The notes under the pieces are model-generated. The model saw nothing but the letters and a program-made list of their open reading frames with translations. It did not search any database and was not told the origin of the DNA. The position numbers and the translations under genes are program-made. From Alphaproteobacteria bacterium (GTDB taxonomy: Bacteria; Pseudomonadota; Alphaproteobacteria; CAAHEQ01; UBA3637), in NCBI GenBank assembly GCA_045655105.1, contig JAZOOQ010000006.1, forward strand, positions 408 through 64,407: a stretch of 64,000 nt of DNA. Reading direction: 5' to 3'. Shown in pieces: positions 39,501 to 54,654 of the stretch (its first letter is position 1; every line of letters begins with the position of its first letter).

Positions 39501-40132
39501 TGTTCTTGAGCAGCATCATCTTTTGATGCGGTTTCACAAATAACACAATCTTTGGAATCAGTAGATTGAGCTTTTACTTGAACAGTTGTTTTCTTTTCTC
39601 TATCGGAAAAACCAGCAGCGGTTGCAGAATCTTCTTCCCATTGAATGGTTAAAACATTTTGAATTTGTCTTAAAGAAACAGGATTCCACAAAACTTTAAT
39701 TAAACATTCTTGTCCACTTGCTAAAGATTCATTTTCTTTACAAGTTGTTTCCATTGAAAATCCATCTTGTTGATTTTCAAGGAAAGTAGCTCCTTTATAA
39801 AGAACAGAACCATTTTCTGCTGTGAGTTTTATTAAAGCTTCAACTTGAGAACCAATAACAACGTTATTCATATCAATTTGTTCAGGAACAACTTTTAAAG
39901 AGACATCGCCCCTATCAAATCCTTGGAATTGACCTCCTTGAGCATCATTTTTAGTTTCATATTCATCGTCCCAGTCGATATTTTCCGTTGGAGTTTGAAC
40001 AGGCGCTTTTTCAGAAATAAAGGAAAGCGCTACAAAAAATACAATAAGAAGAAATAATCCACCAAACAAAAGTTTTCTGTTACTTTTTTTTACATATTGC
40101 TCACTTGAGCTTAATCCTCTGTTTTCTTTCAT
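33530..40132 (-). CDS. virB10: Giant VirB10-family protein (2,200 aa): TM anchor, beta-sandwich-like module, about 1,500 aa of 17-residue repeats, VirB10/TrbI domain, acidic tail
   Basis: C-terminal VirB10 domain at about nt 33880-34500 (AIPAVLTRSIDS, IIPAGSRLIG, RLIRPDG, DAQGRGGVAAYLDDELVKKFG). N-terminal TM helix LLFGGLFLLIVFFVALSFI. Lies between virB9 and virB11. Confidence 0.85.
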   Translation of the reverse strand: MKENRGLSSSEQYVKKSNRKLLFGGLFLLIVFFVALSFISEKAPVQTPTENIDWDDEYETKNDAQGGQFQGFDRGDVSLKVVPEQIDMNNVVIGSQVEALIKLTAENGSVLYKGATFLENQQDGFSMETTCKENESLASGQECLIKVLWNPVSLRQIQNVLTIQWEEDSATAAGFSDREKKTTVQVKAQSTDSKDCVICETASKDDAAQEQKYAMGLDGKLHPIVEDGSIVIDGEVIKPTENGLYINKDGKIVAIATPEKLPLNLKNELMGKIAPNGDVINENGDKLGRLLGDDTIVDAELNVLGAAIPIVSVMDMTGNVIGKLLKDGTVVNEKGSVIGKPLANGAVANLNNRVMGVLRPWGLVADLTGNVIGGIIPDGSVMDAANSVLGTVKPNGLVTNNTNDLIGGTIPQGVAVAPGCQLTGKIMQNGEVRDAYNQTVGKTLIDGSVINSEGTDIGGAIQLGLVINEKGNPIGFINSEGKAVGPQGAVIGCVNPDGSITAGKKTVGSVLPKGRVIGFGCQQIGSVFPNGIAINDSLEQVGKVMTDSYVRNDQNRIIGVVVPRASAIADGCRLLGLVTLGGDLTDANNEPFGCITPDKTVVDNAGKVIGALAIKGIVKNNEGVVIGRVRLDGKVMDLKGKVIGCLQEDGSVISIDGKEILGTVIGDNGQSGTPTGVVLDANGNPTSWTVMGDKVYDANGNEIGTIDQDGIVSATNGKFLGVIPPDGVIVSPDGLILGRYNSKIGFGLNQEGERFARVLPNLTAVSGDTQQIIGTLIPDKTAFLDLDNNYLATMSVDGTLKNSDGDIIGAIRANKTVTDKDGKVIGFEMPHGKVLSILGKEIGSITPKGEVVSLKKTVIGKILANGIAVSQDEKIIGGVFKRLSVAFTPEELIGYPNVTGSILDKNGNIVGQATPFGLVINEEGVIGRMLPFGVYVNTKNELIGWTSFDADLLGKNARSIGRLMSNGIALDKAGTQIGYLVKTGLAVKSNGKLLGYMAINNTISTEKDTGYLYASDFIYNNMDEVIGRVLPQGIAVDNSGKFAGILHSDGRVGLGKTQLGHVLSDNRIANAKGDITGTFIPLNSVGYTDNNQTTYLINEYGEAIDTQGKIKGLVIAPETITKDGNFVARLVDKDLFVAENSASKTMGIVSTNGSVLTIGGSKPVGSIMTNGLASNLIKQIQGNVLHAGPAVSNALNTVGRESLNGTIFLRGKKESTASGIRALYNDKGNIRGTTLPVTAFVGKSGLLIGQTQTAATITNQDEKTVAVQMPFGFALTQDNLWAGGKAPFGVAVDDDAKILGTVAADGAVIGKDNQMTARALSDGSVADIQDRSLYNTMPQKGGLVQQGLPFGYRGDVLGRTTLSGDILDATDSKTLRILDDGTILGKDEPLAGAILPFHTAIAQDGSFMGTLIHNGQIMSPSGELKGKIAVNGTVKEGTYKITGALVSSALVTNDCKVVGQTGFNGQVIDAKGTVVGRILPDKWAVNTSGEKIGRLTRNGIVMSPEGKYIGRTMPDSTVVDVNGINIGCSKNDGTVVDHKTGEIIGATHERGLVLGKDGKPIGRVKLNGSVVNKNGEVIGTLRADGNVVNANGEIIGRNVSRDEEILYDENGNIKGTFGSDGVIKDAEGNFIAQVLPTGEIVDKNGNVIGQLGDNGELPSDIESGLLVDANGNVFGKISGCDVFNLQNEKIASITPNGSIIGLNGELFATIHENGTLQDKDGNNMGQIKGIDLRLDKCGIKSLSEEELEALRNAQGGAGQAGSRKISFGNKLYQVTPDGSILDDKNEIVGFMQEGRPMTLDGRPLSPDGDEHGRIRPNFGNKKMKPTPEQIQQMQEILSQKRESMKAGMGSRGLITPNSKIKAMARKKADSDWKSIGVNKIVSSYPVDMSRMILKDKAIPAVLTRSIDSRYAEMPVTAIVERHIYSEKGRNIIIPAGSRLIGTFAGEQGNDKRAAKLEITWQRLIRPDGGAFSFEGTSGDAQGRGGVAAYLDDELVKKFGKPIMTSVVTSAISYMMATNDDMYQDMYGNTITSSKTEAANDARENFIESMQTIFDQLIEDSANIPVVIYVPSGTRLTVFPNEDLWLRSEEDDISEAEEISTEAQKPDTSSWIETRNTQKETTDEENEEDEEESEESEEDEESSDVDDSKYYKPSDKYNSEEESDESQNEAIYTGDSVEKQPISERKVTPVLPKTGSSDRLF
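34960..39490 (-). repeat. In-frame tandem array of a degenerate 17-aa (51-nt) coding repeat inside virB10
   Basis: Consecutive units parsed by hand include KLLKDGTVVNEKGSVIG, KPLANGAVANLNNRVMG, VLRPWGLVADLTGNVIG, GIIPDGSVMDAANSVLG and TVKPNGLVTNNTNDLIG. Consensus: x-h-x-P-[DN]-G-x-V-x-[DN]-x-x-G-x-h-I-G. Confidence 0.85.
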
Positions 40133-40187
40133 TGCTAACCCATTTCTTTACTGTCGGAACAAATACTTAAATGATTTTCAAAGAATT

Positions 40188-41924
40188 TTATTGAACGCGA
40201 ACAACTGAGCATCCAAATCCACGACGACCCAATCTTTTGCATAATTTATCTGCCAAAGTAATATCTTTAATTGGACCGACGCGTAAGCGGAATAATTCAC
40301 GCATATTGCTGTCTGCTGTTGTATCAACAGAATAATAAGGTTCATAACCGCTTAAAACATCTGCATTCTTATCAAGAATTTTTTCCCAAATTCCTTCAAG
40401 TTCAGTAATATCTGCATGTGTACCAAGTTCAATAGAAATTGTTTCGCTTGTGGCTAAACCGGAATTTCTTTGTGCTGAAATTGGCATTTGACTCATTACA
40501 CCAACAATCCCTGCAGATGCTTTTGGAGAGTTCACAACATTAGCTGGAATTGATTGAATCGGAGCCATGTTTGATGTATATACTGAACTGTTTGGTTGAA
40601 CATATCCCGGCATATAATTTTCAGTATATGTATCATACATTGATTCAACAGGATACATACCGTTTGTTTGTGGCATATATGTGTTTTGTTGATACATATC
40701 CATCATTTGAGGTCTTGGTGCTAATGGACTTTTTGTGATTTGTTTTTCTTCTGAATCAGCACCTAAAGTTGGATCATAAGCCGGAGCTTCTTTACTCATT
40801 ACGCTTGGTCGACCTGTATATGGAGAAACAGTCATATTTTCAGAACCGCTATAATCTGTATATTCAAGACCTGCACTTGGATCTCTTCTAAGTTTTAAAC
40901 AGATAAGTTTTTTACCATTTCTTAAAACCAAATCCCCAATAGCTTCAACAACAATTAAACGGCTATTTGGTCCCGTTGTTCTAAAACCAACAGGAACTTC
41001 TGTTTCTTGAACTAAAAGACTGACAACAGGGCGTTGAGTCATTGTTAAAGCTTTCGGTCCCAAATCAATGTATGTAAAAATATTATCGCGCCATACATTA
41101 TCTGGGGCAATATCCACATCTGATGGATTTGGAATATAAATATCAATATCAAAACGAATGTTTTCTGGATCTACAGGAATGCTTTGCAACCAATTTTTTG
41201 GGCCAGTTGAGGCGGTATTAATACCCAATTGGGGATTTTGACCACCACTTCTGCCAATTGCCCATCCTGGTGCTTTATTGGAGTTTAAAAACCCATTTCC
41301 AACTGCTCTATTTGTTGCACCATTCATACCACCTAAGCGGCCTCCATTTTCAACAGGAGTGTATCGTGGTCCAACTAATACATCAACAACAGATTGAGAA
41401 ATCTTTTCCGCATTATATGTTTCGCTTCTTAAATAGAAAACATATCGGTTACCTGAACGACCAAAAATAATCATATTGCTATCAACACCAATGTATGATG
41501 GGTCAGCATATAAAAGAAGAGAGTTTGGTGCTGCAATTTCACCACCAAAAGATTCTGGAGAACCGATATGAACTTTTTCAATTAACTCCCATGTTGGCAA
41601 GTTAATCAGAGTCATCATTCCTTCTCTTAAACGGATTGGTAAAATAACATCAGGTGACCAAGCATATTTTGAATATCCTGGTTTTGATTGACCTTCCCCT
41701 AAATGAGCCATTGGGTCATTCCATGCTTTTTGTTGCATGCCAAGAGAATGTAAATAATTTGGGTTAACAGATTCGTAATCGCCATTTGTTTGCGCAATAG
41801 CGTCGCTTAAACGTTCACTTTCAGCATCTGTAGGCAACCCCTCTGAATGTGCAACAACAGAAAATAAAACAAAAACAGCAGCTGTTGCCAGCCAACCTTG
41901 TCTGTGAAGTTTGTGTTTGAACAT
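40188..41924 (-). CDS. virB9: VirB9-family protein with Met/Tyr/Pro/Gln-rich linker and C-terminal SPOR domain
   Basis: Signal peptide (AAVFVLFSVVAHS). VirB9-like blocks (RYVFYLRS; NIFTYIDLGP ... PVVSLLV ... LIVVEAIGDLVLRNGKKLICLKLR). C-terminal 83 aa are SPOR-like (FRLRVGPIKDITLADKLCKRLGRRGFGCSVV). ATG 41924 is preceded by GAGGAG. Confidence 0.8.
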   Translation of the reverse strand: MFKHKLHRQGWLATAAVFVLFSVVAHSEGLPTDAESERLSDAIAQTNGDYESVNPNYLHSLGMQQKAWNDPMAHLGEGQSKPGYSKYAWSPDVILPIRLREGMMTLINLPTWELIEKVHIGSPESFGGEIAAPNSLLLYADPSYIGVDSNMIIFGRSGNRYVFYLRSETYNAEKISQSVVDVLVGPRYTPVENGGRLGGMNGATNRAVGNGFLNSNKAPGWAIGRSGGQNPQLGINTASTGPKNWLQSIPVDPENIRFDIDIYIPNPSDVDIAPDNVWRDNIFTYIDLGPKALTMTQRPVVSLLVQETEVPVGFRTTGPNSRLIVVEAIGDLVLRNGKKLICLKLRRDPSAGLEYTDYSGSENMTVSPYTGRPSVMSKEAPAYDPTLGADSEEKQITKSPLAPRPQMMDMYQQNTYMPQTNGMYPVESMYDTYTENYMPGYVQPNSSVYTSNMAPIQSIPANVVNSPKASAGIVGVMSQMPISAQRNSGLATSETISIELGTHADITELEGIWEKILDKNADVLSGYEPYYSVDTTADSNMRELFRLRVGPIKDITLADKLCKRLGRRGFGCSVVRVQ

Positions 41925-42081
41925 TGAATCTCTCCTCTTTATTTTTGTAATATATTTACACAATAAAACAAAAATATTTAAAAAGTCTAGCAAAAAATGA
42001 AAAAAGATGTGTTTTTAATAGAAAAAATTTTTCAAGGTTTTTTTTAGAAGTTTTTTAAGAGGGATTTTTTTGAAAAAATTA

Positions 42082-42780
42082 TTATGAATCAGCTTTTTTT
42101 ATCCCAAGTTGAATAACTGTAAATCCAAGTGGATTTTTTAGTCTTTCTTCCCAAGTTAAACCTTCTCTTGTGGGTCTAAAAGCAACATCCATTGTAACAA
42201 CCCATCTGGATTTTTGAGGTTCACTTGATAAGTGTTTCATTTCTGTAAATTCAACTTCTGTACGCCAAATGTTTTCATTTCTACTTGAGCGATAAGGGTT
42301 AACGACTAAAATTTTAACATTACGGGTCAACCCTTCTTCTTTAGCTTGTTTAATCCAATCTTCTGCATATTCAATAAATTTTGAATAAACGGTGCTTTCG
42401 CTCATCCAGTTAATTTCGCCATCAATCCCAGTGCGTCGTTCAAGTTCTTGAATGTTTGATCCAACGCTAAAATAGGAAAGCAAATACTGTCTTATAAAAG
42501 ATTCAGTCAGTGTTTGCATATTCATTTGGCTGAAGTTTGGGCGAACAACATTAATAACTTGTTCATTCTTATTAAGTGTTGTTAAGAAAAATGGTTGCAC
42601 TCTTACAATAGGCATTAATGAAACAAGAGCGCTAATAAGCATAATTGTTGTTAATGAAGAAACAACTAAAACAAGCGCAAAAGTGCGCGCCATCCAAAGA
42701 TAACGCCTTTCTTTAACGGCTTCTTCGGATAAATCTTGACCTTGTTTCTTTTTAACAGGTATTTGCTCGTTCATTGTCAT
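42082..42780 (-). CDS. virB8: VirB8-family protein (copy b)
   Basis: Short cytoplasmic N-terminus, one TM helix, periplasmic domain ending with the VirB8 signature NPLGFTV. Confidence 0.8.
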   Translation of the reverse strand: MTMNEQIPVKKKQGQDLSEEAVKERRYLWMARTFALVLVVSSLTTIMLISALVSLMPIVRVQPFFLTTLNKNEQVINVVRPNFSQMNMQTLTESFIRQYLLSYFSVGSNIQELERRTGIDGEINWMSESTVYSKFIEYAEDWIKQAKEEGLTRNVKILVVNPYRSSRNENIWRTEVEFTEMKHLSSEPQKSRWVVTMDVAFRPTREGLTWEERLKNPLGFTVIQLGIKKADS

Positions 42781-42798: not shown

Positions 42799-42978
42799 TT
42801 AAGATAACCATTCAGGAAGGGCAGGTGCTTTTTCAAGTTCAATGCATGCACATGGAGATTTTTTAAGTTCAGAATAATCTGGACCAATTCCAACTGGTTC
42901 TTTTTCATAAACACTGCCACAAGCAGCAGCTAAAGCAGCGATACCTAAAACAAATAAAATAACAAAATATTTTTTCAT
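42799..42978 (-). CDS. virB7: VirB7-like small lipoprotein (59 aa), absent from the supplied ORF track
   Basis: Hand translation: MKKYFVILFVLGIAALAAACGSVYEKEPVGIGPDYSELKKSPCACIELEKAPALPEWLS. Lipobox LAAAC. Located between the two virB8 genes, as rvhB7 is in Rickettsiales. Confidence 0.65.
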   Translation of the reverse strand: MKKYFVILFVLGIAALAAACGSVYEKEPVGIGPDYSELKKSPCACIELEKAPALPEWLS

Positions 42979-43066: not shown

Positions 43067-43744
43067 TTATTTTTTAACGGCCTCATCATATTTTTGAATG
43101 TAAAAGCCAAAAGGATTTGAAAAAGTTTGAGAATAAATATGTCTATTTGGATAATGACCAATTGTAAGGGTTGCTACACGTTGTTGTACCAGAGGTTTAA
43201 CAATTGGATCATATGGGTTGTAAAGAAAAACATCAAACTCAACAGTATAGGTATTTCCTAATTTTGAAATATTATTAATTTCAACACTTTGAGTTTCTTT
43301 TCCAGCGGCAATTTTCTTAATTTTTTCTTGAATATTTTTGGCAAATTTAGAGTATACAGTCGGTGAAGACAATCGTCTAATTTCCCCAGAACCACCCCAT
43401 CTAGCAGTCATTTCATCTTTATCAGCAAAATATGAAATTCTTCTATCAATATAATATCTGATTAACATTTCATCTAATAATTCGCGATTGGCTCGATTGC
43501 TATGTGATGTTGAATTCATTAATCTTTTTGCGGGTAATGTGTCAATCTGAATATGATCTAAGGTATGCATAGGGGAGGGTAAAATTTGAGCTACCACTTT
43601 TAGTTTTGGAGCCATTTGAACCAATGTTAAAACAATAAATAAATTGATAGCAATAGAAACAGCGGCTAAAGTCATCCAAAATTTAGCTAAATAAATGGCA
43701 ATTTTTCCACGTTTTTTTTGATCTTTAATAAAATAAGAAATCAC
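43067..43744 (-). CDS. virB8: VirB8-family protein (copy a)
   Basis: One TM helix; C-terminal NPFGFYI signature. GTG start directly abuts the upstream stop (TAAGTG), with GGAGG 8 nt upstream. Confidence 0.75.
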   Translation of the reverse strand: MISYFIKDQKKRGKIAIYLAKFWMTLAAVSIAINLFIVLTLVQMAPKLKVVAQILPSPMHTLDHIQIDTLPAKRLMNSTSHSNRANRELLDEMLIRYYIDRRISYFADKDEMTARWGGSGEIRRLSSPTVYSKFAKNIQEKIKKIAAGKETQSVEINNISKLGNTYTVEFDVFLYNPYDPIVKPLVQQRVATLTIGHYPNRHIYSQTFSNPFGFYIQKYDEAVKK

Positions 43745-45289
43745 TTAAAGACCTCCATTTAAACAGCTTTTGCTAATTTTTTTATTATAATGTTTTTTAA
43801 TATCCACGTTATTCTTTTTTTCAAGTTCTTCATAAAGAGCAATTTCTGCTTTTTTTTGTTTTAAAAGATGATCAATTTCTTGAGCATTAACCACTGTAAA
43901 ATTAACATCTCCATTTATGTCTTTTTCAAGAGCGTTAACATAATTAAAATCTTGATAAGCTTGAGATGAATAGATGATTTGTTTAAGCTGTCTATATTCT
44001 TCTGTATCTTTTGGGATTTTATTTAAAGCATTTAATTGTTCAACATAAGACATTTTTAAATAAAGTTTAAAGGATTCAGTTTTGTTTTTTGTATCAACAA
44101 CATCTGAATGTGTTCTTGTGATTTTTTCACGAACAATTTTAATATTTTTATTTTTAAGATTTAATAATTCTTCTTCTAAAGCCATAATAGAATCAACATT
44201 ATCACCTTTAATTTCATTTGTGACGCCAAGATTTTTTAAACGTTGATTTAATTCGTTTATAGTTGTTTCTTTTTTGTTTGTTATAAGATTTAAAATGTTT
44301 TCGGAGTTTGTTTTTTCTTTTTTGATAGCTTGGTAAACGTTTAACCGATTGTTTTGTTCCTGAATATCTTTATGTCTAGCTTCTTCATTTAAAACAAGTG
44401 TTTTCGAAAAAAATATTTTTGACATTTCTCCATTGGGGTTATATGTATTAAATCCACTTTGAATAAATTCTTTCCATGGTTTTGGCCATTCTGGAAAAAC
44501 GGATTTTGTTTTTGCTGGATCATCATTAAACCACATAATTTCATGAGCTGGAGGTAAAGCTTTTGGTGGTTTAGGAAAGTTTTTTTGACTTTCAGATAAT
44601 CTTTGTGCTTGGTCTGGTGTTAGTGTGGATAAAAATGATTTATATGCCAATTCATTTTTTTCAAAATCATTTTCAGCACTAATTCCTGCAATTCGGCCTG
44701 TTCGTCCTAAAATTTTATTTATGTTCATTAAAAAAGAATTAACTTCTTCTTGGTAAGAATATTTTTGATCTTCCCATAATTCGAAAGACTTACCTTCTTT
44801 TACTTGACCATATTTTGATGGATTAGCATAAACGTCTGTTAAAATTTCTCTGCCCAAATACCAGTTAGCAAAAAGTTCTGCCTGAGCATCTTCTCCTGTG
44901 CTTGTTTTTTTCGGAACACTGTTTAAAATATCAACTGTTAATTTTAATTCTTGTTCATCATAAGCCTGAGTGATATTTTGCCAAGCAGCTTTTGGATTTT
45001 CATAAACATCAGCAAGTAAATTAATATTGCATTCTTCCATCGCGTTATATTTTTGGTTAATTAAATCAACGCGCAGTTTTTCATGCTCTTCTTCTTTATA
45101 TTTTTCTTTTAATTTTTTAAGTTTGAGTTGCATAGCATGAAGTTGCTCAAGATAGATAATTTCAGTTGTGTAATCATCTGTTTCAATCACTGCTTGAGAT
45201 TCATTTTCAACTGGCGCATTTGCTTGAGTTAAACTGATAAATGAAAAAAATGAAATACCTGTTAATGCAAATAATAGAAAATGTTTCAT
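43745..45289 (-). CDS. Secreted coiled-coil protein P6 (514 aa), T4SS-linked, unknown function
   Basis: Signal peptide MKHFLLFALTGISFFSFISLTQA. Lys/Glu-rich heptad-like segments. Its stop abuts the virB8a start. Confidence 0.6.
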   Translation of the reverse strand: MKHFLLFALTGISFFSFISLTQANAPVENESQAVIETDDYTTEIIYLEQLHAMQLKLKKLKEKYKEEEHEKLRVDLINQKYNAMEECNINLLADVYENPKAAWQNITQAYDEQELKLTVDILNSVPKKTSTGEDAQAELFANWYLGREILTDVYANPSKYGQVKEGKSFELWEDQKYSYQEEVNSFLMNINKILGRTGRIAGISAENDFEKNELAYKSFLSTLTPDQAQRLSESQKNFPKPPKALPPAHEIMWFNDDPAKTKSVFPEWPKPWKEFIQSGFNTYNPNGEMSKIFFSKTLVLNEEARHKDIQEQNNRLNVYQAIKKEKTNSENILNLITNKKETTINELNQRLKNLGVTNEIKGDNVDSIMALEEELLNLKNKNIKIVREKITRTHSDVVDTKNKTESFKLYLKMSYVEQLNALNKIPKDTEEYRQLKQIIYSSQAYQDFNYVNALEKDINGDVNFTVVNAQEIDHLLKQKKAEIALYEELEKKNNVDIKKHYNKKISKSCLNGGL

Positions 45290-45291
45290 TA

Positions 45292-46071
45292 TTAATTTTC
45301 CTCCGGCAACTCTTCTTCAGGGTTCCAATATGTTTTATGTCTTTTTGCGGTTGCAAGTCCAAGTAGCGCATTATATTGTAATTGAGCGGCTCTTAATTGT
45401 TTTTGAATCATAAGTAATTTAATCCAAGCAATTTTTGCAGCAGCAGTTCTTAATAAGAGCTTTGGTTTGTTTTCGTTGTTTTCTAAAGAATTTTGATTTG
45501 ACGCTTGTCTTGATGAGTTATCGATATCCTTTTCCATTTCATCAATGATATCAAATATTTTTTTGGTTTGATGTTTTAAAACCAATATTCTTGCCATCAT
45601 CTGAATATTGGCTTGTTGACGAATATATTGTCTTTTTTTAACAAAATTATAATCACCTTCATGATCAGCAAAAGGCATATCAGCATAAATTTTCATATTG
45701 CTTTTCATAAGGGTTTCAACTTTTGATGAGGCAGGATCTGGATATTCAACAACAATATCTTTTGGCGGTTCTTTTCCTTCAACAAAATCGCCAGGATTTG
45801 CAGAATCGTTATTTCCTAAAACCGAAGATGGATTTGGAAGGTCAGAGATTGTTTGATTGACAAGAGCATTTCCTTGTTCGGTTATATAATTAAATTGTTT
45901 GTTAGCTTCAGCTGCGCCTCTTGAAATCGTATCAGCAGTGCTTCCTGGTTCTAAAACTGGACCACCAACACCAGCAATCCAACATGGATCACAAGGCATG
46001 CATACTGAGGAATATGCTGACAGAGGAGTTGTGGTCAAAAATATGAAAAGAATATAAGGTGTTATTTTCAT
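45292..46071 (-). CDS. Secreted protein P5 (259 aa), T4SS-linked, unknown function
   Basis: Signal peptide, Cys-rich mature N-terminus (SVCMPCDPCW), helical C-terminal half. Its start overlaps the P4 stop (ATGA). Confidence 0.6.
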   Translation of the reverse strand: MKITPYILFIFLTTTPLSAYSSVCMPCDPCWIAGVGGPVLEPGSTADTISRGAAEANKQFNYITEQGNALVNQTISDLPNPSSVLGNNDSANPGDFVEGKEPPKDIVVEYPDPASSKVETLMKSNMKIYADMPFADHEGDYNFVKKRQYIRQQANIQMMARILVLKHQTKKIFDIIDEMEKDIDNSSRQASNQNSLENNENKPKLLLRTAAAKIAWIKLLMIQKQLRAAQLQYNALLGLATAKRHKTYWNPEEELPEEN

Positions 46072-46787
46072 TTTGAACCTCCTTGTGTTGTTACGCTAGG
46101 ATCGTTTGGTTTAAGTTCTAAAATGGTCGGTGATTCTTTAATAAATTGTTGAACAACATCAGATTCCATTTGAACAATTTGAATAATAATTTGAGATGCA
46201 AGTATTTTCATTTGAGCTTTGATATTGCGGTTCATCATGGCATTACTTTGTGTTTGATTGCATCCTTTTGCAGACGCACCATGAAGGGATTGCAAATCTT
46301 CAATATAAAGTGGGCGCAATTGTTGAGATAAAGCATAGGATTCAGCTGCAATTTCTGCAGCGAACGCCATTCTGTTTTGAAGCTTTGTTTTTGCTGATTC
46401 TTTATCATCTTTAGATACAAAAAACTTTTCTTTCAACATCTTAACAGCATCATCAAACTTTTCTTGCGGTGAGATGTATACTGATTTAAACATATTCATA
46501 ATATTATCTTTCAGATAATCATAAGTTTTTGATGAGAGTTCTGTTTTTTCATTTGAAGGGGCGTTGCTGCAATTGGCATTCCCAGATCTGGTTTCATTTG
46601 CGGTTTCTTCTTGTGCAACAACTTCATTACTTAAAGAGGCTGTTAATTGTGTTGCCATGTTGCTGCCAGCAAGCATTGGAATATTGCTTACATCGGTAAC
46701 CGGGCAAACTTGACCAAGGGCGGTATGACATAATAACCCAGCGAATAAAAAAGAAGAAAATAGATGTATTTTAAAGTTTTTTTTCAT
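46068..46787 (-). CDS. Secreted protein P4 (239 aa), tentatively VirB5/TrbJ-like
   Basis: Signal peptide then QVCPVTDVSNI, resembling the Q-[IL]-P-V-[TI]-D mature N-terminus of VirB5/TrbJ. Helical; typical VirB5 size. Confidence 0.5.
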   Translation of the reverse strand: MKKNFKIHLFSSFLFAGLLCHTALGQVCPVTDVSNIPMLAGSNMATQLTASLSNEVVAQEETANETRSGNANCSNAPSNEKTELSSKTYDYLKDNIMNMFKSVYISPQEKFDDAVKMLKEKFFVSKDDKESAKTKLQNRMAFAAEIAAESYALSQQLRPLYIEDLQSLHGASAKGCNQTQSNAMMNRNIKAQMKILASQIIIQIVQMESDVVQQFIKESPTILELKPNDPSVTTQGGSK

Positions 46788-46798
46788 TTTTTTCTCCT

Positions 46799-47557
46799 TT
46801 ATTTTTCTTCAATAATAGATCTTTGTCTATCTTGCATCATCAGCGTGCTGTTAATTTCTAAAATAGAAGATTCAACAACCAAAAGTTCGTTAAGTTGAGT
46901 TGCAATTTCTTTATCTAAAATTGATAATCCATTTTCAAGACTTTTAATTTCAGTGCGTGATTTGACGTTTGATGCCATTCTTTCAAGTTCTTCTTTTTGT
47001 TTTTCCGAGAGGGCTAAAATCTTTTCAGAAATTGCAAGCCCATGATGAAGAGAAAGATACCTTTTATGTTGAATAAATTCTTGAGTGTTTGGAAATGAGG
47101 CATCTGCTAATGGATCAATTTTCACAATAGCATCACTATCAAGATCAATTTTATCTCTTTCATTTAATGAATTTTGAGCTTTATAATCAACCAGATATGT
47201 GCTCTTTACAATTTGATGCATTTTTGAAAGATTTGGTTTTTCTTGGCGAAGTTCCGTTAAAAACATTTGTGTGAATGTTTTATCCGTATAAAAAGCAACA
47301 TCATCACCCGTGAGCAGTGGTGAATTATCAGTCGTGATACGTTCACGTCTGGTAATCCCTGGTTGGCCATAATTTGTGTTCGTTTTTTTTTGAAACTTAG
47401 ATATATATTTTGAAACAGTGGCAGAGGCTTGTTGAACGATTGCTTGGGCTTGAGCAAGCGGATACATTAAAATACTGGTGGTCATTCCTGCTTGTACTTG
47501 TGTATTTAAACAAGAAAGTATGATAACAGTTGGTAAGATTAATTTTATTTTTAACAT
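46799..47557 (-). CDS. Secreted helical protein P3 (252 aa), T4SS-linked, unknown function
   Basis: Signal peptide ending QVQA, coiled-coil-like C-terminal half. RBS AGGAGGA. Confidence 0.6.
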   Translation of the reverse strand: MLKIKLILPTVIILSCLNTQVQAGMTTSILMYPLAQAQAIVQQASATVSKYISKFQKKTNTNYGQPGITRRERITTDNSPLLTGDDVAFYTDKTFTQMFLTELRQEKPNLSKMHQIVKSTYLVDYKAQNSLNERDKIDLDSDAIVKIDPLADASFPNTQEFIQHKRYLSLHHGLAISEKILALSEKQKEELERMASNVKSRTEIKSLENGLSILDKEIATQLNELLVVESSILEINSTLMMQDRQRSIIEEK

Positions 47558-47566
47558 GTTATCCTC

Positions 47567-48340
47567 CTAATCAAAAAATGAACCGAGCATACTGCCAGCC
47601 GCTTGTATGGCCATACCCGCAACAACTTCTTTGAAAGATACGTTTGTGTTTGTAACATAATCTGCAGAGCTGATGGCTGTGATCATATTATTGGTTGCGG
47701 CTGTTAAAACAATGGCATTATAAATTTGAGCACTGCTCATTTTAACACTGGTATTATTTGAAACACTGGAACTATAATTTTTTGTTTGATTTGTTTGATC
47801 TTGAACTTGGGTATCAATTTTTGTTTTGCCAACTAAATTATTGCTCGCAAGTTCTTTATTTGTGGCTGCTAAAGCATATCCAAAAGTGGCAACTTCAACC
47901 AAAGCACGTTCTCTTTTTTCTTTTGATTTTGCAGTATTTGCAATACCGGCTTCTTCAGTTCTGTCTTTACCATCTTGATTTGTGGGAGGTAAAAGTGTTT
48001 CTCTAAAAAATTCACTGCCGTTAACACCTTCTGGAATTGTTTCAGATGAACTTGATCCTTCAGGAGAAAGAGAACCAGACACCCCCTCAGTTGCTGATTG
48101 AGGATTAATAAATTCAAGAGTGCTATTTGTGAAATCATTAATACCACCAATCATTCTGTTTTTTAAAGAGGTTTCGCCTTGAGAGTTTTGTTTTTCATCT
48201 TGCACATCTTCATCAGCTTGTTGTTGCTTTTTTTGGCCAGATCTATATTGCCCTGTGTCACTAACTGGAATACCAGCAAAAGCATTTTGAAGAGTTAAAG
48301 AATAGAGTGCAAAAAGAAGAATAAGTGTTATTTTTTTCAT
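47567..48340 (-). CDS. Secreted protein P2 (257 aa), tentatively VirB5/TrbJ-like
   Basis: Signal peptide ending NAFA, then GIPVSDTGQY (VirB5/TrbJ-like mature N-terminus). Low-complexity middle and helical C-terminal part. TGATG overlap with P1. Confidence 0.5.
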   Translation of the reverse strand: MKKITLILLFALYSLTLQNAFAGIPVSDTGQYRSGQKKQQQADEDVQDEKQNSQGETSLKNRMIGGINDFTNSTLEFINPQSATEGVSGSLSPEGSSSSETIPEGVNGSEFFRETLLPPTNQDGKDRTEEAGIANTAKSKEKRERALVEVATFGYALAATNKELASNNLVGKTKIDTQVQDQTNQTKNYSSSVSNNTSVKMSSAQIYNAIVLTAATNNMITAISSADYVTNTNVSFKEVVAGMAIQAAGSMLGSFFD

Positions 48341-49287
48341 CAGAAGCCTCCATCCGTTTTAACAGAATTGATTGTTGAATATATGCTTAAAGAATTTAAT
48401 TCAAGTGTTGATAAGCCTAGCCCTAAATAAGCACTGCCGATAACATTAAATATTAAATCCGATTCAGCACGTTTTGTTAATGTTTCAGAAACAGTTGTTG
48501 GGTTTTCTTCATTCACATCTTCTTGAACATCAGTAAAATCTGCAGTTGCATTAACAATGGCAGCAGAATCTGCATATAGATTTGAAATCCCATTAAATTG
48601 CGCTTGAGTAACATGTTGATGAATATCACCAACATCCATAATGCCGGGATCTTGCTCATTATCAATATAAAAACAAGTTTTAACGCCATCAATTGTTTTT
48701 AAATTATCGCAAATTTTTTTATCTTTTTCTCTTGTTGTTAAACGTTCTAGAGGGTTTAAGTCGTTAATTTTATTAACAACATTAGATCCGCTTTTGTTTT
48801 GAGCTACGAAACCTTTCCCCGCTTTTTCGCCACCCTCTTCGGATGAAAACATATCGCCAACATAATCTACTCCTTGATCAACCCAATTACCAACGGTTCC
48901 TGTAGCGCTATCAATAGCGCCAGACACAGCGCCTGTCACTTTATCTGTTGCAGCACCAGCAATAGTTGTGGCTGACCCAATAACAGCATCAGCTGTTCCC
49001 ATAACAGTGCTTTCAACGTTATCAATAACACCAGCTGCTTTGTTGACAAATTGCCCAATGGCTGATTGGTTAAAATAATTTGGAAATCCATTAAGAGAAT
49101 TTTGAAGTTGCATAAGTCCATTTATGTTTCCTTCAGTGGTGGCGTGTTCAAGAGTTGCCTTCATGTTTGGCATATAGTCAAGGTTTGTGTATTTAACAGG
49201 AAGAGCAAAACCTTCTTGCTGAAAGGATAGGCAAGAACAAAAAGAAATTAAAAATAAACCTAATTTTGAAAAATTCAGACGAAACAT
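48340..49287 (-). CDS. Secreted Gly/Ala/Thr-rich protein P1, first gene of the T4SS-linked array
   Basis: Signal peptide MFRLNFSKLGLFLISFCSCLSF. Contains the segment TVMGTADAVIGSATTIAGAATDKVTGAVSGAIDSATGTVG. ATG 49287 is preferred because GGGGGG lies upstream; the track starts at 49299. Confidence 0.55.
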   Translation of the reverse strand: MFRLNFSKLGLFLISFCSCLSFQQEGFALPVKYTNLDYMPNMKATLEHATTEGNINGLMQLQNSLNGFPNYFNQSAIGQFVNKAAGVIDNVESTVMGTADAVIGSATTIAGAATDKVTGAVSGAIDSATGTVGNWVDQGVDYVGDMFSSEEGGEKAGKGFVAQNKSGSNVVNKINDLNPLERLTTREKDKKICDNLKTIDGVKTCFYIDNEQDPGIMDVGDIHQHVTQAQFNGISNLYADSAAIVNATADFTDVQEDVNEENPTTVSETLTKRAESDLIFNVIGSAYLGLGLSTLELNSLSIYSTINSVKTDGGF

Positions 49288-49339
49288 TAGGCCCCCCATG
49301 CATATGTTTTATTGATTAGTATATATATTCTATTTTACA

Positions 49340-50194
49340 CTATTTTGGGGATTTTGCAAGATTTTTTTTATATGCAATCAATAGGTTAACAAATAGCATT
49401 GTAACAGTCATTGGGCCAACACCACCTGGAACAGGGGTAATAAATCCTGCAACATCTTTTATTTCTTCAAAATCTAAATCTCCAATAATTTTGTTATCAT
49501 CTAAACGTGTGATCCCAACATCAATAACAACAGAACCTTTTTTAATAAATGAAGGATCAATTAAATGAGGTTTCCCCGTTGCAGCAATAAGAATATCCGC
49601 CATATTGCAAAGTTCTTTCATATTTGTTGTTTTAGAATGGGCTTGAATAACGGTTGCATTTTGTTTGAGTAACATTTGGGCTAATGGCTTTCCAACCAAT
49701 CGAGATCGGCCAATAATAAGAGCCGTTTTTCCTTCGATCTTTGGGCAGACAGATTGAATAAGTTCCATGCATGCCAATGGTGTGCATGGCTTTAAATCTG
49801 TATCAGATAAAAATAAATCCCCTAAATTTTTAGGATGTAATCCATCAACATCTTTTTCTGGTGAAAGTGCTTCTAACACTTTGTTTTCATTAAAGTGTTT
49901 GGGTAATGGCAACTGAACTAAAATGCCATCAATTTCTTTATTTTGATTCAATTCTTCAATAAAAGAAATTAAAGCATCTTCTGTCATTACAGGAGAAAGT
50001 TGAAAGACTTCTGTGTCTGCGCCAATTCTTTCACCAACTTTTTTCTTATGGCCAACATAAATTAAACTTGCAGGATTATCCCCAACCAAAATAACAGCAA
50101 GTTTTGGTTTTCTATCTAAAGAGGAAATTTCTGTTTTTAGGGCATCTTGAATTTTTGATGCCATTTCTTTTCCGTTTATAATTATGCCAGTCAT
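49340..50194 (-). CDS. folD: Bifunctional methylenetetrahydrofolate dehydrogenase/cyclohydrolase
   Basis: LAVILVGDNPAS, YVGHKKK, VQLPLP, IIGRSRLVGKPLA, PVPGGVGPMT. Confidence 0.95.
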   Translation of the reverse strand: MTGIIINGKEMASKIQDALKTEISSLDRKPKLAVILVGDNPASLIYVGHKKKVGERIGADTEVFQLSPVMTEDALISFIEELNQNKEIDGILVQLPLPKHFNENKVLEALSPEKDVDGLHPKNLGDLFLSDTDLKPCTPLACMELIQSVCPKIEGKTALIIGRSRLVGKPLAQMLLKQNATVIQAHSKTTNMKELCNMADILIAATGKPHLIDPSFIKKGSVVIDVGITRLDDNKIIGDLDFEEIKDVAGFITPVPGGVGPMTVTMLFVNLLIAYKKNLAKSPK

Positions 50195-50209: not shown

Positions 50210-51385
50210 TTAAATTTTCATTTCAACAACACTAAATCTTTTTGCATTTTTGAGCAAACGTTCAGAGAGTTGTTCCATTTTTTCTGCTTCAAGTCGCATT
50301 CTTAATTCTTCATCACTAGGAATAACTTTTTTGTTTGTTATCTTGCATTTCATGAAAAATAAATCCGAATCTGGTGTTTGGATTGGTCCAATAACTTTTT
50401 TTGTTGGAGCATCTTTTAAAAGATCTTTTAATTCGCGTGGTAATTGTTCTGGAGAAATCATACCTGATTTAACGGATTCTTTAATAGCATTTTCTTTTGC
50501 AAAATCTTTGAAAGAATCGCAAGAGTTTAATTTATTAATTTTATCCCCAAAAGCTGCTGTATGGTTTGCACTTAAAGCCATTTGAGAAACTTCCCAAATT
50601 GGAACGGTGTCGGTATGAATAGGGTATTTCCTATCTAAAACAAGTAAAATAAGATAACCGTTTTTAGTTTTTAATGGTGTTGAAAGTTCACCACTTGACA
50701 TGACTCTTAAAGCATCTGTAATTTCTTTTTGATAATGTTTTCCATCAATCCAACCAAGTTCACCACCTTTTGAAGCAGAAGGAGCTATGGAATATTTTTT
50801 TGCAAGCTCAGGAAATGGTTTTCCTTGATGGAGTTCTTTATAGCAATGTTCAGCTTCTTTTTGATCCTTAATCAACATTTCTGCCACATAAAATCCTTCT
50901 GTTTTTAATTCGTTTCGAATGTTATTTTTTAAAGCAGAAATTTCTTTTTCAGAAGGAGGTAATAAAGATTTTTTATTTTGTTGAATAACTTGAAGCCACA
51001 TGAGGTCAGCTTTGATTTGGTTTTTTAAAATATGTAATGGAATTTGATTTTTTTTCAGCATACTTTCCATGCTTCCTTTTTTCATCCCATTTTGGGATTC
51101 TAAATGAAAAATAGCTTCTTCAATTTCTTTTTCAGAAACACTAAATCCTTTTTTTTCTGCTTCAGAAATTTTTATATGATCATTGATTAAAGCATCTAAT
51201 GCTGCTTTTACATATTCTTTTTTTTTCGCTGTGGTGATGGGACTTGAATTTTGAATAGAAATAAGTTTAGCACGAGCCTCTGCGTCAAATGAAGAAATTG
51301 GTTGATCATTAACAGTGGCAACAATTTGCCCCGCATTTGCAGATAAACTTAATAAAATTAAAGCAATAAAAAGAAGTGATCTCAT
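50210..51385 (-). CDS. surA: SurA-like periplasmic chaperone / parvulin PPIase
   Basis: Signal peptide, SurA N-domain, parvulin domain (GGELGWI ... TKNGYLILLV). Conserved position downstream of lptD; ATGA overlap with it. Confidence 0.8.
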   Translation of the reverse strand: MRSLLFIALILLSLSANAGQIVATVNDQPISSFDAEARAKLISIQNSSPITTAKKKEYVKAALDALINDHIKISEAEKKGFSVSEKEIEEAIFHLESQNGMKKGSMESMLKKNQIPLHILKNQIKADLMWLQVIQQNKKSLLPPSEKEISALKNNIRNELKTEGFYVAEMLIKDQKEAEHCYKELHQGKPFPELAKKYSIAPSASKGGELGWIDGKHYQKEITDALRVMSSGELSTPLKTKNGYLILLVLDRKYPIHTDTVPIWEVSQMALSANHTAAFGDKINKLNSCDSFKDFAKENAIKESVKSGMISPEQLPRELKDLLKDAPTKKVIGPIQTPDSDLFFMKCKITNKKVIPSDEELRMRLEAEKMEQLSERLLKNAKRFSVVEMKI

Positions 51386-54300
51386 TCCATTCCCCCTAAG
51401 GTTTTAAGAATAAATTTTACCATAAAAGATGTGTCTCCTTCATAGTCTCTGTCATAAGTGAAAGATTTATCCAATTCAAAAGCAATGATTGTGCAATCAT
51501 TTTCGTATTGAGCAATTAAACCTGATTCAACTGGGCCACGTTGGGATGATTTTTTTTCTAAATTATATCTATAATATCCAGATAAAGACCAGTTTTTTGT
51601 TAATTGAGATGATCCAAAGAATAATATTTCTTCGCGGTTTTTATAATAAGAAAATTCATCTGATTTCGTGTCATCTTTAATTTTGATATAATCGATACCA
51701 ACGCGTAAAGGTGCTTTTCCAACAGTAAAAGTAATTTCATTTTTAACTGGTTTAAAATCATCTTTATTTAACCGAAAACGATAAGCTAATGAGAAGATAT
51801 CAAAATTTGTTTGAAGTCTACCAACATAGTCAGAATAATTTGATTCATATCCTAAAGCTTTTTCCATCACTTCATCTCCAGAGAAGCGATATGATTGACC
51901 GAATAAAAATGATGATGACATATTTTTATTGCCATAAACTGAATATTCAATACCATAATTTGCTCTTGTGCCTGTTTCAACTCGGTCATACCCAATAAAT
52001 CTATTTTCAGAGAATAAGTTGGTATCATCAAAATCAATGTCAAGACTATCGACATTAGGGATTTTATCTTTATTGCCACTAACTGGTGATGAAACAAGCA
52101 TTAAAATTGGAGAAATAACCTGTGTATAATTTTCGCTTGCTTTTGCAAATGGATAACTTATTTTGCTTGAAAATACAGGATAAAATCTGCCAGTTGAATA
52201 ACTATCATCTGTTTTTAAACCGTTAAAAGAATATTTTCCTGTATCAATGCTATAACCATCTATGCGAACACTTGCTTTAGTGTCAATATTAATGCCTAAA
52301 TTTGAGATATAGGGTAGATGTAAACCTTGGGTTACAGAGGCTCTGTTTGATTTAAATCTTTGGCGGTTATTATAAGCAACGCCATTAATTTTTGAAAACG
52401 CATAAAGTCCACTGTTATTTAATGCTTCTGTGTTATACACATAATTCATTGTTGGAATGAAAACAGGGATGGATTTTTGATTAACTCTACCATGTTGGTT
52501 TTGAAAAGAAAGTCCTTTGAAATGGAAATAATTTCTTTCGCCAAATCTTTCAGCTGAAATATTTGATTCCAAGTATTGATCAGATGTATCAACATCTGGC
52601 AATGAGTATCGTCTAAAATATGTATCTGAAGAAACGCGATAATATTGTCCACTTAAACGCCATTTATCTGAAATATCTGCCCTCATATGAGCTTTGATGT
52701 GGCCTTGATTTTTATCATCATTATCTCTTGTTCCACTGGCTTGTAATTTTAAGTATCCACGTGTAAATGTTCCTTCATAATCCATAAATCCTAATGGGTC
52801 ATGACTAGTGGATAGTGTTGGAATAAGAGTTAAGTTTTGATTATCTGCAATATCAACAAAAAATGGGATGTTAATACCTTGTTTCATTTCATTACTATGA
52901 GCAAAACTTGGCGCTAAAAAACCTGTTTTTCTTTTAACGGTAAAATCTGGTATATTTAAATATGGAAAATAAAAAACAGGAACATCTTTAACCTTTAAAA
53001 AAGAATGAGTAAATGACATTTCTTTTTCTGGTTTATTGTGTTTAATTGTTCTAGCTGTTAATTTCCACAGAGGAGATTCTCCTTTGCAAAAAGTGCAAGG
53101 AGTATATGTAGCTTTTTTTAAATAAGTAATATCTCCATTCTCTTTTCTTTTATATCTAGCTGCAGACATATATGATCCTTCATATAAGTCCATTTCAACA
53201 ACGTTACTAACTGCCATTTTAAGAGCAGGAGTCAAAATAGTATCGGCTGTATATGTAACAGTTCCATCTGGTGTTGTTGTTTTAGAGGAGTGCGGGATAA
53301 TAATTTGCCCATTTTTTTTATCGTAAACAAATTTATCTGTTTGGATAATGGTATTGTTTTGTTCAATAACAACGTTGCCTTGAGCGGTAACAGATTCATC
53401 TTGATGATTATAAAAAATTTCATCAGCTTCAAAATTAACAGGTTTTTCTTTTTCAAATTTAACTTGTGGGTCTAATTTAATTTGAGAGTGAGCCGTGTTT
53501 GCTGAGATGCAAAATGTTGCGATTAATAATAATTTGAATGAATTTTTCATGACGTTTTTGATTTGAGGTTTTTGAATGGGTTTCATTGCAAGATAATAAA
53601 CAATCAAAACAGGAACAAAAAGATTTAAAAACATAAGAGGGGCAAACCAAAGATTTTTAGCAGTTAAGTTTTCAAAAGCTAAAGCAAGAGATTGCACTAA
53701 AATAGTTGTTAGAATAATGATATTCATACGACCCATCTGCCCCCGACGATTATAAAATGGTGATAAAATAGCAAACATTGCTAAAAACATAAATGAGATA
53801 TTATAAATTGGTTTTGTTAAGCGTTTTAAAATTTCTGTTTTATATTTACGATATTGAATTTCATTGCCAACATCTTCTTTTGTTGCAGAAAGCAAATAAG
53901 AAAGTGAATAATCTGATTCATCTAATTTTCGTGAGCTATCAGCATTTTTTTTGTCACTAAAAAACATTTTATATTTATCAAAATTTAAAATTGAAAACTT
54001 TTTTGTTTCAGGATTATATTCTTGTCTACTCCCATTTTGAAATACAAGATCAAATCCTTCATCATTTTGGAAAATAAATCCTTTTTCAGCAATTAAAACA
54101 GAAATATTTTTTGGATTTTTGGCATCATATGCTAAAACACCTTTAACAGAACCATCTTCAGATCTTTCTTTTACATAAAGAGTTAAGCGATTATTTAACG
54201 TATTAAATTGACCTTCTTGAAGCAATAAATGGGATAAATCATTTCTTACTCGCCATTTAAGTTCACCAAGTTCTCTATGAGAAGCAGGAATGATGTTGAG

Positions 54301-54654
54301 TGTTAATAAATAACCAATAATGGTGAGTGCAACGGCTAAAATAAATGCTGGTTTCATAATGCTTTTATTAGACATGCCAATTGCTTGCATGACCATAACT
54401 TCTTTATCCGCTTGCATTCTAGAAAAAATAAATAAAATCACAGCAAATAAGGCAATAGGTGATAAAATTTGGATAAAGTTAGGTAAAACCAACAATGTCA
54501 TTTCTAAAAACATGCTAACAGGAATACCTTTTGTAACAATCATATCAATCATGCGCAACGATTGTGTAAGCCACACAAGTGTTGTCATTCCTAATAAAAT
54601 CAATAAAAAGCTGATGACCAGCTGTTTTAAAATATATGATGTTAAAATCTTCAT
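51382..54654 (-). CDS. lptD: Single 1,090-codon frame joining an LptF/LptG-family permease (about aa 1-368) to LptD (from internal Met at nt 53550)
   Basis: The N-terminus (MKILTSYILKQLVISFLL ...) has six hydrophobic helices of the YjgP/YjgQ type. An internal MKNSFKLLLIATFCISANTAHS signal peptide follows, then an OstA N-domain (FEADEIFYNHQDESVTAQGNVVI) and the LptD beta-barrel. There is no stop codon between the parts. Confidence 0.75.
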   Translation of the reverse strand: MKILTSYILKQLVISFLLILLGMTTLVWLTQSLRMIDMIVTKGIPVSMFLEMTLLVLPNFIQILSPIALFAVILFIFSRMQADKEVMVMQAIGMSNKSIMKPAFILAVALTIIGYLLTLNIIPASHRELGELKWRVRNDLSHLLLQEGQFNTLNNRLTLYVKERSEDGSVKGVLAYDAKNPKNISVLIAEKGFIFQNDEGFDLVFQNGSRQEYNPETKKFSILNFDKYKMFFSDKKNADSSRKLDESDYSLSYLLSATKEDVGNEIQYRKYKTEILKRLTKPIYNISFMFLAMFAILSPFYNRRGQMGRMNIIILTTILVQSLALAFENLTAKNLWFAPLMFLNLFVPVLIVYYLAMKPIQKPQIKNVMKNSFKLLLIATFCISANTAHSQIKLDPQVKFEKEKPVNFEADEIFYNHQDESVTAQGNVVIEQNNTIIQTDKFVYDKKNGQIIIPHSSKTTTPDGTVTYTADTILTPALKMAVSNVVEMDLYEGSYMSAARYKRKENGDITYLKKATYTPCTFCKGESPLWKLTARTIKHNKPEKEMSFTHSFLKVKDVPVFYFPYLNIPDFTVKRKTGFLAPSFAHSNEMKQGINIPFFVDIADNQNLTLIPTLSTSHDPLGFMDYEGTFTRGYLKLQASGTRDNDDKNQGHIKAHMRADISDKWRLSGQYYRVSSDTYFRRYSLPDVDTSDQYLESNISAERFGERNYFHFKGLSFQNQHGRVNQKSIPVFIPTMNYVYNTEALNNSGLYAFSKINGVAYNNRQRFKSNRASVTQGLHLPYISNLGINIDTKASVRIDGYSIDTGKYSFNGLKTDDSYSTGRFYPVFSSKISYPFAKASENYTQVISPILMLVSSPVSGNKDKIPNVDSLDIDFDDTNLFSENRFIGYDRVETGTRANYGIEYSVYGNKNMSSSFLFGQSYRFSGDEVMEKALGYESNYSDYVGRLQTNFDIFSLAYRFRLNKDDFKPVKNEITFTVGKAPLRVGIDYIKIKDDTKSDEFSYYKNREEILFFGSSQLTKNWSLSGYYRYNLEKKSSQRGPVESGLIAQYENDCTIIAFELDKSFTYDRDYEGDTSFMVKFILKTLGGME

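Follow-up and report, generated by a model that had tools for sequence, protein, structure and literature searches.

Why do six genes for apparently exported proteins stand at the head of a type IV secretion system (T4SS) operon, directly in front of its virB8 gene? The question is raised by a 64,000-nucleotide stretch of contig JAZOOQ010000006.1 from an alphaproteobacterium (assembly GCA_045655105.1), called the window below, in which six open reading frames (ORFs) on the minus strand, here named O1 to O6, run into virB8a. From what is observed of the gene structure, the conservation of the genes and of their promoter, the evolutionary rates and the profile-level homology, the block is probably the promoter-proximal part of an rvh-like VirB-type T4SS operon shared by a clade of uncultured Alphaproteobacteria from gut habitats, in which O1 to O5 form an array descended from VirB5 and O6 is an accessory component.

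All six ORFs that an initial annotation had described from the sequence exist at the positions and lengths given there. O1 (48340-49299) encodes 319 amino acids, O2 (47567-48340) 257, O3 (46799-47557) 252, O4 (46068-46787) 239, O5 (45292-46071) 259 and O6 (43745-45289) 514, and the gene that follows, virB8a (43067-43744, minus strand, GTG start), is the first recognisable T4SS gene (Pfam VirB8, E = 1.4e-9). The junctions from O1 through O6 into virB8a measure -1, 9, 11, -4, 2 and 0 nt, exactly the spacings annotated, and the O6 stop codon is contiguous with the GTG of virB8a (TAAGTG). Strong Shine-Dalgarno sites (GGAGG, AGGAGG or AAGGAG) stand ahead of O2 to O6 and virB8a; the O1 ATG at 49299 lacks such a site. 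Since GGGGG precedes a second ATG at 49287 and the O1 orthologue of the related locus L002 begins there, the real start of O1 is probably at 49287, giving a protein of 315 amino acids.

The description of O1 to O6 as secreted proteins with no further transmembrane helix holds as well: a signal-peptide-like N-terminal segment is present in all six and kept in their orthologues, and no second hydrophobic segment was found in any of them by Kyte-Doolittle analysis. Inspection by eye found no canonical lipobox in the six proteins, and a lipoprotein reading of O1, O4 and O5 was dropped on that account; a reading of O2 as a VirB2 pilin was dropped for want of a second hydrophobic helix. The smaller proteins have a common architecture, with a signal peptide, about 240-260 residues, and long N- and C-terminal helices flanking a variable middle. 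Glycine-rich tails or GG[LFV] C-termini, such as the CLNGGL that ends O6, recur in several families and may be a common assembly or sorting element; 27 of the 98 block ORFs have them, compared with 4 of 84 ORFs outside the block.

Upstream of O1, a sigma-70-like promoter on the minus strand (49332-49359) consists of a -35 element TTGCAA at 49359-49354, a 16-nt spacer ending in TG and a -10 element TAAAAT at 49337-49332; it overlaps the folD stop codon and lies about 33-45 nt 5' of the O1 start. In 13 of 15 loci an element of this kind (TTGCAA or TTGACA, 16-17 nt, TG-extended TAnAAT) stands 50-96 nt ahead of the gene that opens the block, compared with 2.5% of random 159-nt windows; locus L004, where folD is not the neighbour, is one of the 13. 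No sigma-70-like element was found upstream of virB7, virB9, virB11, O4 or O6 in any locus. A generic scan for promoter and terminator consensus sequences was not above chance overall; a promoter signal that could be used came only from comparing the loci. The conserved promoter and the tight junctions make the block the promoter-proximal part of one operon, and we infer that it is co-transcribed with the virB genes.

The six genes are maintained by selection. A related metagenome-assembled genome (MAG), one of the species representatives in GTDB, has this block with about 95% identity at the protein level and all six ORFs intact, and against this relative the ratio of nonsynonymous to synonymous substitution rates (dN/dS) is 0.26 for O1, 0.27 for O2, 0.37 for O3, 0.22 for O4, 0.31 for O5 and 0.095 for O6. 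For comparison, VirB8a, VirB8b and VirB9 give 0.05-0.09, and FolD, SurA and an LptF/LptG-LptD fusion 0.02-0.05. All six are real genes under purifying selection, and O1 to O5 outpace the core components VirB8 and VirB9 about 4- to 6-fold. At 75% VirB9 identity, orthologues of O1 to O5 are 23-33% identical and those of O6 43%.

Related loci were reached via VirB9 (1294 matches at E ≤ 1e-5, of which the 120 listed are 54-97% identical and mostly metagenomic), an O6 profile scan of metagenomes and the most distant O6 homologues. In all 21 related giant-VirB10 loci the block lies directly 5' of virB8a; within this set VirB9 identity ranges from 55 to 97%, and the weakest O6 match has E = 1e-13. 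The retrieved loci have a constant layout of 3-6 unannotated genes, an O6 homologue, virB8a, a lipoprotein gene, virB8b, virB9 and giant virB10. As L004 and L019 have an upstream neighbour other than folD, the block travels with the virB genes and not with folD, which bears out the annotation's view that it belongs to the T4SS locus. Gene number in the block varies among relatives; among the small block proteins O4 has the widest conservation, and O1 orthologues are present in 7 related loci. In L002 (5753-6639) and L006 (4344-4661) the O5 orthologue is broken into two ORFs (105 and 190 aa in L002), which could reflect a frameshift, a pseudogene or an assembly error. Sample names indicate gut metagenomes, from ruminants and other sources, and the GC content is 32%. 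Membership of the host in Rs-D84, a partner-dependent order with reduced genomes of under 1 Mb (PMC12306168), or in RF32 is a guess from these sample sources and the GC content.

The descent from VirB5 is carried by O3 and O4, which by profile comparison are clear homologues of VirB5 and paralogues of each other. Profiles were compared by hhalign without secondary-structure scoring, with signal peptides kept unless stated; the VirB5 set consisted of TrwJ from plasmid R388 and eight annotated VirB5 proteins from plasmids (n = 9), the merged O3 and O4 alignment comprised 34 sequences, and all alignments were small and assembled by hand. The O3 and O4 family profiles match each other over 149 columns (97.6%, E = 2.9e-12; percentages are those of hhalign throughout). 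The merged profile matches VirB5 over 200 co-linear columns, running from residues 6-220 of O4 to residues 2-207 of TrwJ (94.3%, E = 1.1e-7). When signal peptides are removed, 78 columns are matched (76%, E = 2e-5), and when the first 45-50 residues are removed, 77 columns (25%, E = 8e-4), while O3 matches the C-terminal helices of VirB5 (53.9%, E = 1.3e-4). A reversed VirB5 alignment gave 0.2%, 40 column shuffles at most 1.6%, and N-terminal segments of SurA, VirB9 and VirB7 at most 2.3%. The trimmed profiles together with the reversed and shuffled controls indicate that both ends of the protein contribute independently to the match. Among the three roles offered in the initial annotation, that of pilus-tip or adhesin variants is the best fit, given this controlled, full-length match of O3 and O4 to VirB5.

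These relationships emerged only with family profiles, pairwise BLAST and two-sequence hhalign for paralogy within the block being negative. Initial full-length hhalign of the families against VirB5 had also stayed at or below 20%; in that comparison 28 N-terminal residues had been cut away, into the motif described below, and O3 and O4 had not been merged. The annotation had proposed a diverged paralogue family, united by similar helical segments behind a basic patch in four of the proteins. The family stands for O3 and O4, less strongly for O1, O2 and O5, and does not detectably include O6. Of the segments themselves, those of O3 and O4 lie within their significant paralogous domain, O2 and O4 are weakly similar (E = 0.007, z = 5.5), and the O5 segment gave nothing. 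What the proteins have in common is instead a VirB5-type PVxD N-terminus and a C-terminal two-helix domain.

In most families, the mature N-terminus left by the predicted cleavage shows a [IVC]P[VI]x[DY] motif with a Q-rich helix behind it. TrwJ, cleaved after AQ, begins with GIPVFDGTRALDFVQQ; O4 begins with QVCPVTD, in which D32 is invariant, and one O4 orthologue reads GWPVFDVMRTAEFAVQ. As in VirB5, the signal peptide leads straight into a (G)IPVxD motif and helix alpha-1. A hidden Markov model (HMM) of the VirB5 N-terminus, run against 476 locus ORFs, had as its top five matches block proteins of five families. Similarity over most of the length of bona fide VirB5 was found for O3 and O4, and the six window proteins fell short of the curated thresholds for VirB5/TrbJ (PF07996, TIGR02791, TIGR02780). 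O3 and O4 are therefore best named, on sequence, divergent VirB5-like proteins and not annotated members of the family. In locus L017 (4249-5544), the O4 orthologue is 431 aa long and has two PxxD motifs, with tandem V/G/S-rich repeats between them that resemble the O1 repeats, a sign that block genes may have fused or exchanged modules.

VirB5 proteins such as TraC (1R8I), CagL and TrwJ fold as a three-helix bundle with an appendage. An AF2 model of O4 built from a 16-sequence alignment (pLDDT 57) places helices at 36-68, 87-99, 111-122, 132-170 and 178-217, a pattern compatible with a VirB5-like layout. Among its top 50 Foldseek matches, all non-significant for this low-confidence model, CagL appears seven times (E 1-3, TM 0.25-0.35) and ClyA once. 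The cryo-EM study of the R388 T4SS names CagL and ClyA as structural neighbours of VirB5/TrwJ (Macé et al. 2022; PMC9259494). VirB5 relatives that cannot be recognised by sequence have a precedent in TraH of the F plasmid (bioRxiv 10.64898/2026.07.31.741991).

O2, O5 and O1 are linked to this family less strongly. Cleavage of O2 after FA leaves GIPVSD at the mature N-terminus, and its profile matches VirB5 over 51 N-terminal columns including the signal peptide (74.6%, E = 2.6e-5); an N-terminal segment with only the last three signal-peptide residues still matches (51.7%, E = 1.5e-4, z = 12.8 against shuffles). A tblastn search of plasmids with an O2 orthologue gave two matches, one of them on the N-terminus of TrbJ at E = 1, which is suggestive only; the same search with an O4 orthologue gave none. 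O5 has an N-terminal CxxCxxC followed by a GGPVxE/D motif, its orthologues reading G(I/W)PV(I/L/F)D(I/V)TS, for example GIPVLDITS. It matches the O3/O4 profile at 80.5% (E = 1.3e-5) over only 19 columns and VirB5 at 19.6% (E = 0.0012) over 14 columns, the motif only, and the N-terminal segment of a distant O5 orthologue subfamily matches VirB5 with E = 8.6e-4 (z = 8). By these sequence features O5 is probably a VirB5-like paralogue. O1 combines an IPVxY-type mature N-terminus (IPVQY after A in orthologues) with G/A/T/V-rich 11-mer repeats and a C-terminal helical domain. Its C-terminal 105 columns match the O3/O4 superfamily profile (54.5%, E = 1.2e-4), and against VirB5 it shows no direct match (0.2%, E = 0.25, 11 columns), making O1 a candidate distant VirB5-like paralogue. 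The block would then hold at least two VirB5 copies and probably five in all. One O1 orthologue, in L003 (2602-3378), has a Pfam match to FliD_C, the flagellar filament cap (E = 2.7e-5); found in 1 of 98 block proteins, it is probably compositional, if curious for a putative tip protein. FliD_C, ApoLp-III and Perilipin matches, each in 1-4 of the 98, were judged compositional and set aside.

O6 is of another kind. It lies immediately 5' of virB8a wherever that junction is on the contig, and exhaustive HMMER searching across 1.84 billion representatives yielded homologues in 55 clusters only; the two distant homologues that were inspected occupy the same position, and the protein was found only in this locus type. 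The family has two nearly invariant cysteines (C87 and C509) and several Trp/Pro-rich motifs. An AF2 model from 32 sequences is confident and all-alpha (pLDDT 87, pTM 0.77); the two proteins modelled, O4 and O6, are both all-helical, in line with the mostly helical proteins that the annotation had described. Foldseek with the O6 model found no fold match in the PDB (best E 0.08, TM ≤ 0.17), its matches being generic coiled-coil proteins that were dismissed as meaningless, and no PDB sequence or profile match and no Pfam match was obtained. An exact-sequence look-up of O6 returned no record, probably owing to a differing start codon in the recorded gene call. O6 is not detectably related to VirB5 (14.7%, E = 0.0018, 41 columns) or to O3/O4 (11%, E = 0.0027, 24 columns, signal peptide only). 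It is most likely a lineage-specific structural accessory of this machine, periplasmic or extracellular.

Several points weigh against a VirB5 origin of the array. Homology rests on small, hand-built alignments (9 VirB5 and 34 O3/O4 sequences) compared by hhalign without secondary structure, the O2 and O5 links are short and partly driven by the motif, and O1 has no direct match to VirB5. The six window proteins had no match in Pfam or NCBIfam; among the 98 block proteins no family matched consistently at E-values up to 5-10, and no VirB5/TrbJ model was among the most frequently matched families even at E 5-10. A PDB profile search with O4 came back empty, the O4 model is of low confidence, and its Foldseek matches are all non-significant. 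Lastly, the 64-kb window lacks VirB2, VirB6, VirB4 and VirD4, and no pilus or stalk partner was seen there. The silence of the curated models, together with the capacity of a helical, Q/E/K-rich composition to inflate profile scores, would favour the alternative that these are unrelated envelope proteins lying between folD and virB8a, whose similarity to VirB5 is a helical or compositional artefact. That alternative is highly improbable, as the block stays next to virB8a in all 21 loci, with or without folD, the promoter arrangement is kept and O6 abuts virB8a, while reversed or shuffled VirB5 profiles reach at most 1.6% against 94% for the real one and the profile of the equally helical O6 only 11-15%. 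Nor are the six proteins members of housekeeping periplasmic families, in keeping with the initial annotation.

Two further explanations accept the block as part of the T4SS and assign it a different role, both of them raised in that annotation. According to one, the proteins are extra core-complex components, comparable to Cag3, CagM and CagT or to Legionella DotC, DotD, DotK and Dis, that surround the giant VirB10 with an expanded ring in the outer membrane or the periplasm. A VirB10 of the size of CagY (2200 aa) and a VirB9-SPOR fusion make an enlarged architecture plausible, and O6, with its core-like dN/dS of 0.095, its constant adjacency and coupling to virB8a and its novel fold, may have such a role. 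As an account of the block it is nonetheless unlikely. O1 to O5 change 4-6 times faster than VirB8 and VirB9, and the number and identity of the block genes vary (3-6 genes), which is unexpected for stoichiometric ring subunits; no canonical lipobox was seen by eye, and the similarity is to VirB5 instead. Cag3, CagM and CagT are beta-rich, whereas the O4 and O6 models are helical, and none of the three was matched by sequence in Pfam or the PDB, nor do they occur in the list of the 50 top-ranking Foldseek matches of either model. For O1 to O5 the analogy thus has no positive evidence, and a ring role is unlikely. According to the other explanation, the proteins are Sec-dependent cargo, assembled in the periplasm and expelled through the outer-membrane channel as in the ptx-ptl system, where five pertussis-toxin subunit genes lie directly 5' of, and are co-transcribed with, ptl (PMC12857230). 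The layout here is the same, with signal-peptide genes heading a T4SS operon under one promoter; there is no virD4 in the locus or the 64-kb window, and fast evolution also fits host-interacting effectors. However, no toxin or enzyme domain was found in the 98 block proteins, the full-length similarity to VirB5 points to a subunit of the machine or pilus, and virD4 may be encoded at another site of the genome, as it is in rvh systems, so that a cargo role is disfavoured and appears quite improbable. The pertussis toxin itself has been proposed as a VirB5 analogue (PMC12857230), and to that extent the cargo and VirB5 explanations overlap.

For the localisation, stoichiometry and function of the block proteins, we infer the following from a descent of O1 to O5 from VirB5. 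They would be Sec-exported, mostly helical proteins of the TrbJ/TrwJ/CagL type. A VirB5 pentamer on a VirB6 platform nucleates the pilus, is carried to its tip and contacts the target (PMC12857230, PMC9259494). After cleavage of the signal peptide, the N-terminal PVxD helix and the C-terminal helices of the block proteins would form a VirB5-like bundle that engages VirB6 and the pilus base, with the conserved termini serving for docking. The poorly conserved, indel-rich middles would face the surface of a partner or host, as would the added modules, namely the Cys-rich N-termini of O5, the G/A/T/V repeats of O1 and the Gly-rich tails. Such exposure is proposed on the strength of the variable middles, the varying gene number and the high substitution rate. 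The cell would display several alternative or hetero-oligomeric tip subunits, and O6, being conserved, disulfide-capable, all-alpha and translationally coupled to virB8a, could for example act as a scaffold between the VirB5-like proteins and either the VirB8 arches or the giant VirB10. A more far-reaching picture is offered tentatively and may well prove wrong: this clade of gut Alphaproteobacteria might possess a new T4SS with five ancient VirB5 paralogues, hetero-oligomeric or interchangeable, as its contact tip, and O6, with a fold not seen before, as a new core or stalk part linking the tip to the VirB8 arches and giant VirB10, used for attachment to or exchange with another cell and not for conjugation.

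Downstream of the block, between virB8a and virB8b, lies a gene for a 59-aa lipoprotein (42799-42978, minus strand) with the lipobox LAAAC, whose sequence starts MKKYFVILFVLGIAALAAAC and which is presumably VirB7; ORF tiling recovered it, nearly invariant, in 12 of the 12 loci that cover the virB8a-virB8b interval. The genes virB8b, virB9, virB10 and virB11 follow (32526-42780, minus strand; Pfam and NCBIfam matches), in the same order in all relatives whose contigs reach that far. The virB9 ORF (40188-41993, minus strand) encodes a C-terminal SPOR domain, which binds peptidoglycan, and this match recurs in many relatives; the ATG of a 578-aa product is its likelier start. The virB10 gene (33530-40132, minus strand) encodes 2200 aa, with the TrbI/VirB10 domain only at about residues 1887-2087. 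In relatives, the long N-terminal part of VirB10 shows repeated weak Bflower and DUF3659 Pfam matches, and in L018 virB10 is split into ORFs of 589 and 1598 aa. Just 3' of virB11, a conserved, acidic 95-aa ORF (32102-32389, minus strand) without signal peptide or Pfam match could encode a T4SS-associated cytoplasmic factor; it is about 88% identical to its L003 copy, where VirB9 is only 75% identical.

Elsewhere in the window, the LptF/LptG-LptD fusion (51382-54654, minus strand) is a 1090-aa ORF that joins a PF03739 permease to PF04453. It is kept in relatives and is unusual in having inner- and outer-membrane parts of lipopolysaccharide (LPS) transport in one polypeptide. An autotransporter of 947 aa (28430-31273, plus strand) is another candidate surface protein, and a 1014-aa MmeI-type restriction-modification enzyme is encoded at 15321-18365 on the minus strand.

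Comparison with known systems shows which of these features have precedents. Like the VirB5/TrbJ/TrwJ/TraC family (PF07996), the block proteins have a Sec signal peptide followed by the (G)IPVxD motif and a long helix; they share its length of about 230-260 aa, its mostly helical nature, its two long C-terminal helices and its place in the virB operon. Unlike that family, the block consists of five tandem, divergent copies in place of one, all missed by curated models, and it lies upstream of virB8 and not between virB4 and virB6; some of its proteins also add Cys-rich N-termini, G/V/S repeats or Gly-rich tails. Several sequence-variable copies of VirB5 (trwJ) within one T4SS locus are also a feature of Bartonella Trw, where they are tandemly amplified, as are variable copies of trwL (VirB2). 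The Trw duplicates arose recently, can still be recognised as such and were amplified along with trwI and trwH, whereas the block copies are ancient (pairwise BLAST between them is empty), keep fixed positional orthology across a wide clade and have no amplified VirB2 or VirB6 alongside them in the locus. The variable Trw copies have been interpreted as variant surface or pilus structures that bind the partner cell (PMC12857230).

The Helicobacter Cag system likewise combines a giant VirB10 (CagY) with adjacent secreted, helical, pilus-associated proteins (CagL, CagI and CagH), one of which, CagL, is a cryptic VirB5. The block showed no sequence match and no significant structural match to CagL, CagI, CagH, Cag3, CagM or CagT, and Cag lacks the rvh-type virB8 duplication, with virB7 between the copies, that is present here. 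The rvh system itself shares with this locus the duplicated virB8, the small VirB7 lipoprotein between the copies and the succession virB9-virB10-virB11, and virB3, virB4 and virB6 evidently lie elsewhere in the genome, as in rvh. It differs in that this locus has a five-gene VirB5-like array, O6, a VirB9-SPOR fusion and a VirB10 of 2200 aa. Further hallmarks of rvh are duplicated VirB4 and VirB9 and several copies of VirB6. The rvh system is defined partly by having 'no VirB5 analog' (PMC11077975), and with O3 and O4 as profile-level VirB5 homologues this locus departs from that definition. In Bordetella ptx-ptl, several genes for Sec-exported subunits are again directly 5' of the T4SS genes under one common promoter; the pertussis-toxin subunits have toxin folds, while the block proteins are helical and no toxin domain was found in them. 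Multiple variable VirB5 copies, as in Bartonella Trw, and cryptic VirB5 proteins are already known; what is new here is the combination of five ancient, positionally conserved paralogues heading the operon with O6, which has no fold match.

No T4SS subunit is less conserved than VirB5, which makes the contact with the target cell, and it is often said to be missing, for example from rvh, the F plasmid, Ptl and ComB. The present locus indicates that cryptic homologues of VirB5 can exist in an rvh-like system and escape the curated models, which suggests that 'no VirB5 analogue' should be checked again with family profiles wherever it has been stated for related systems. In the block, five ancient paralogues form a natural series whose docking ends are conserved and whose middles are hypervariable, and O6 is a confidently modelled protein of 514 aa without structural relative that occurs only beside virB8a; the series and O6 alike are targets for multimer modelling and structural work. 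If the hosts are indeed reduced-genome gut lineages suspected of depending on partner cells, then this operon, in which virB10 alone takes up 6.6 kb, would be a leading candidate for their contact apparatus.

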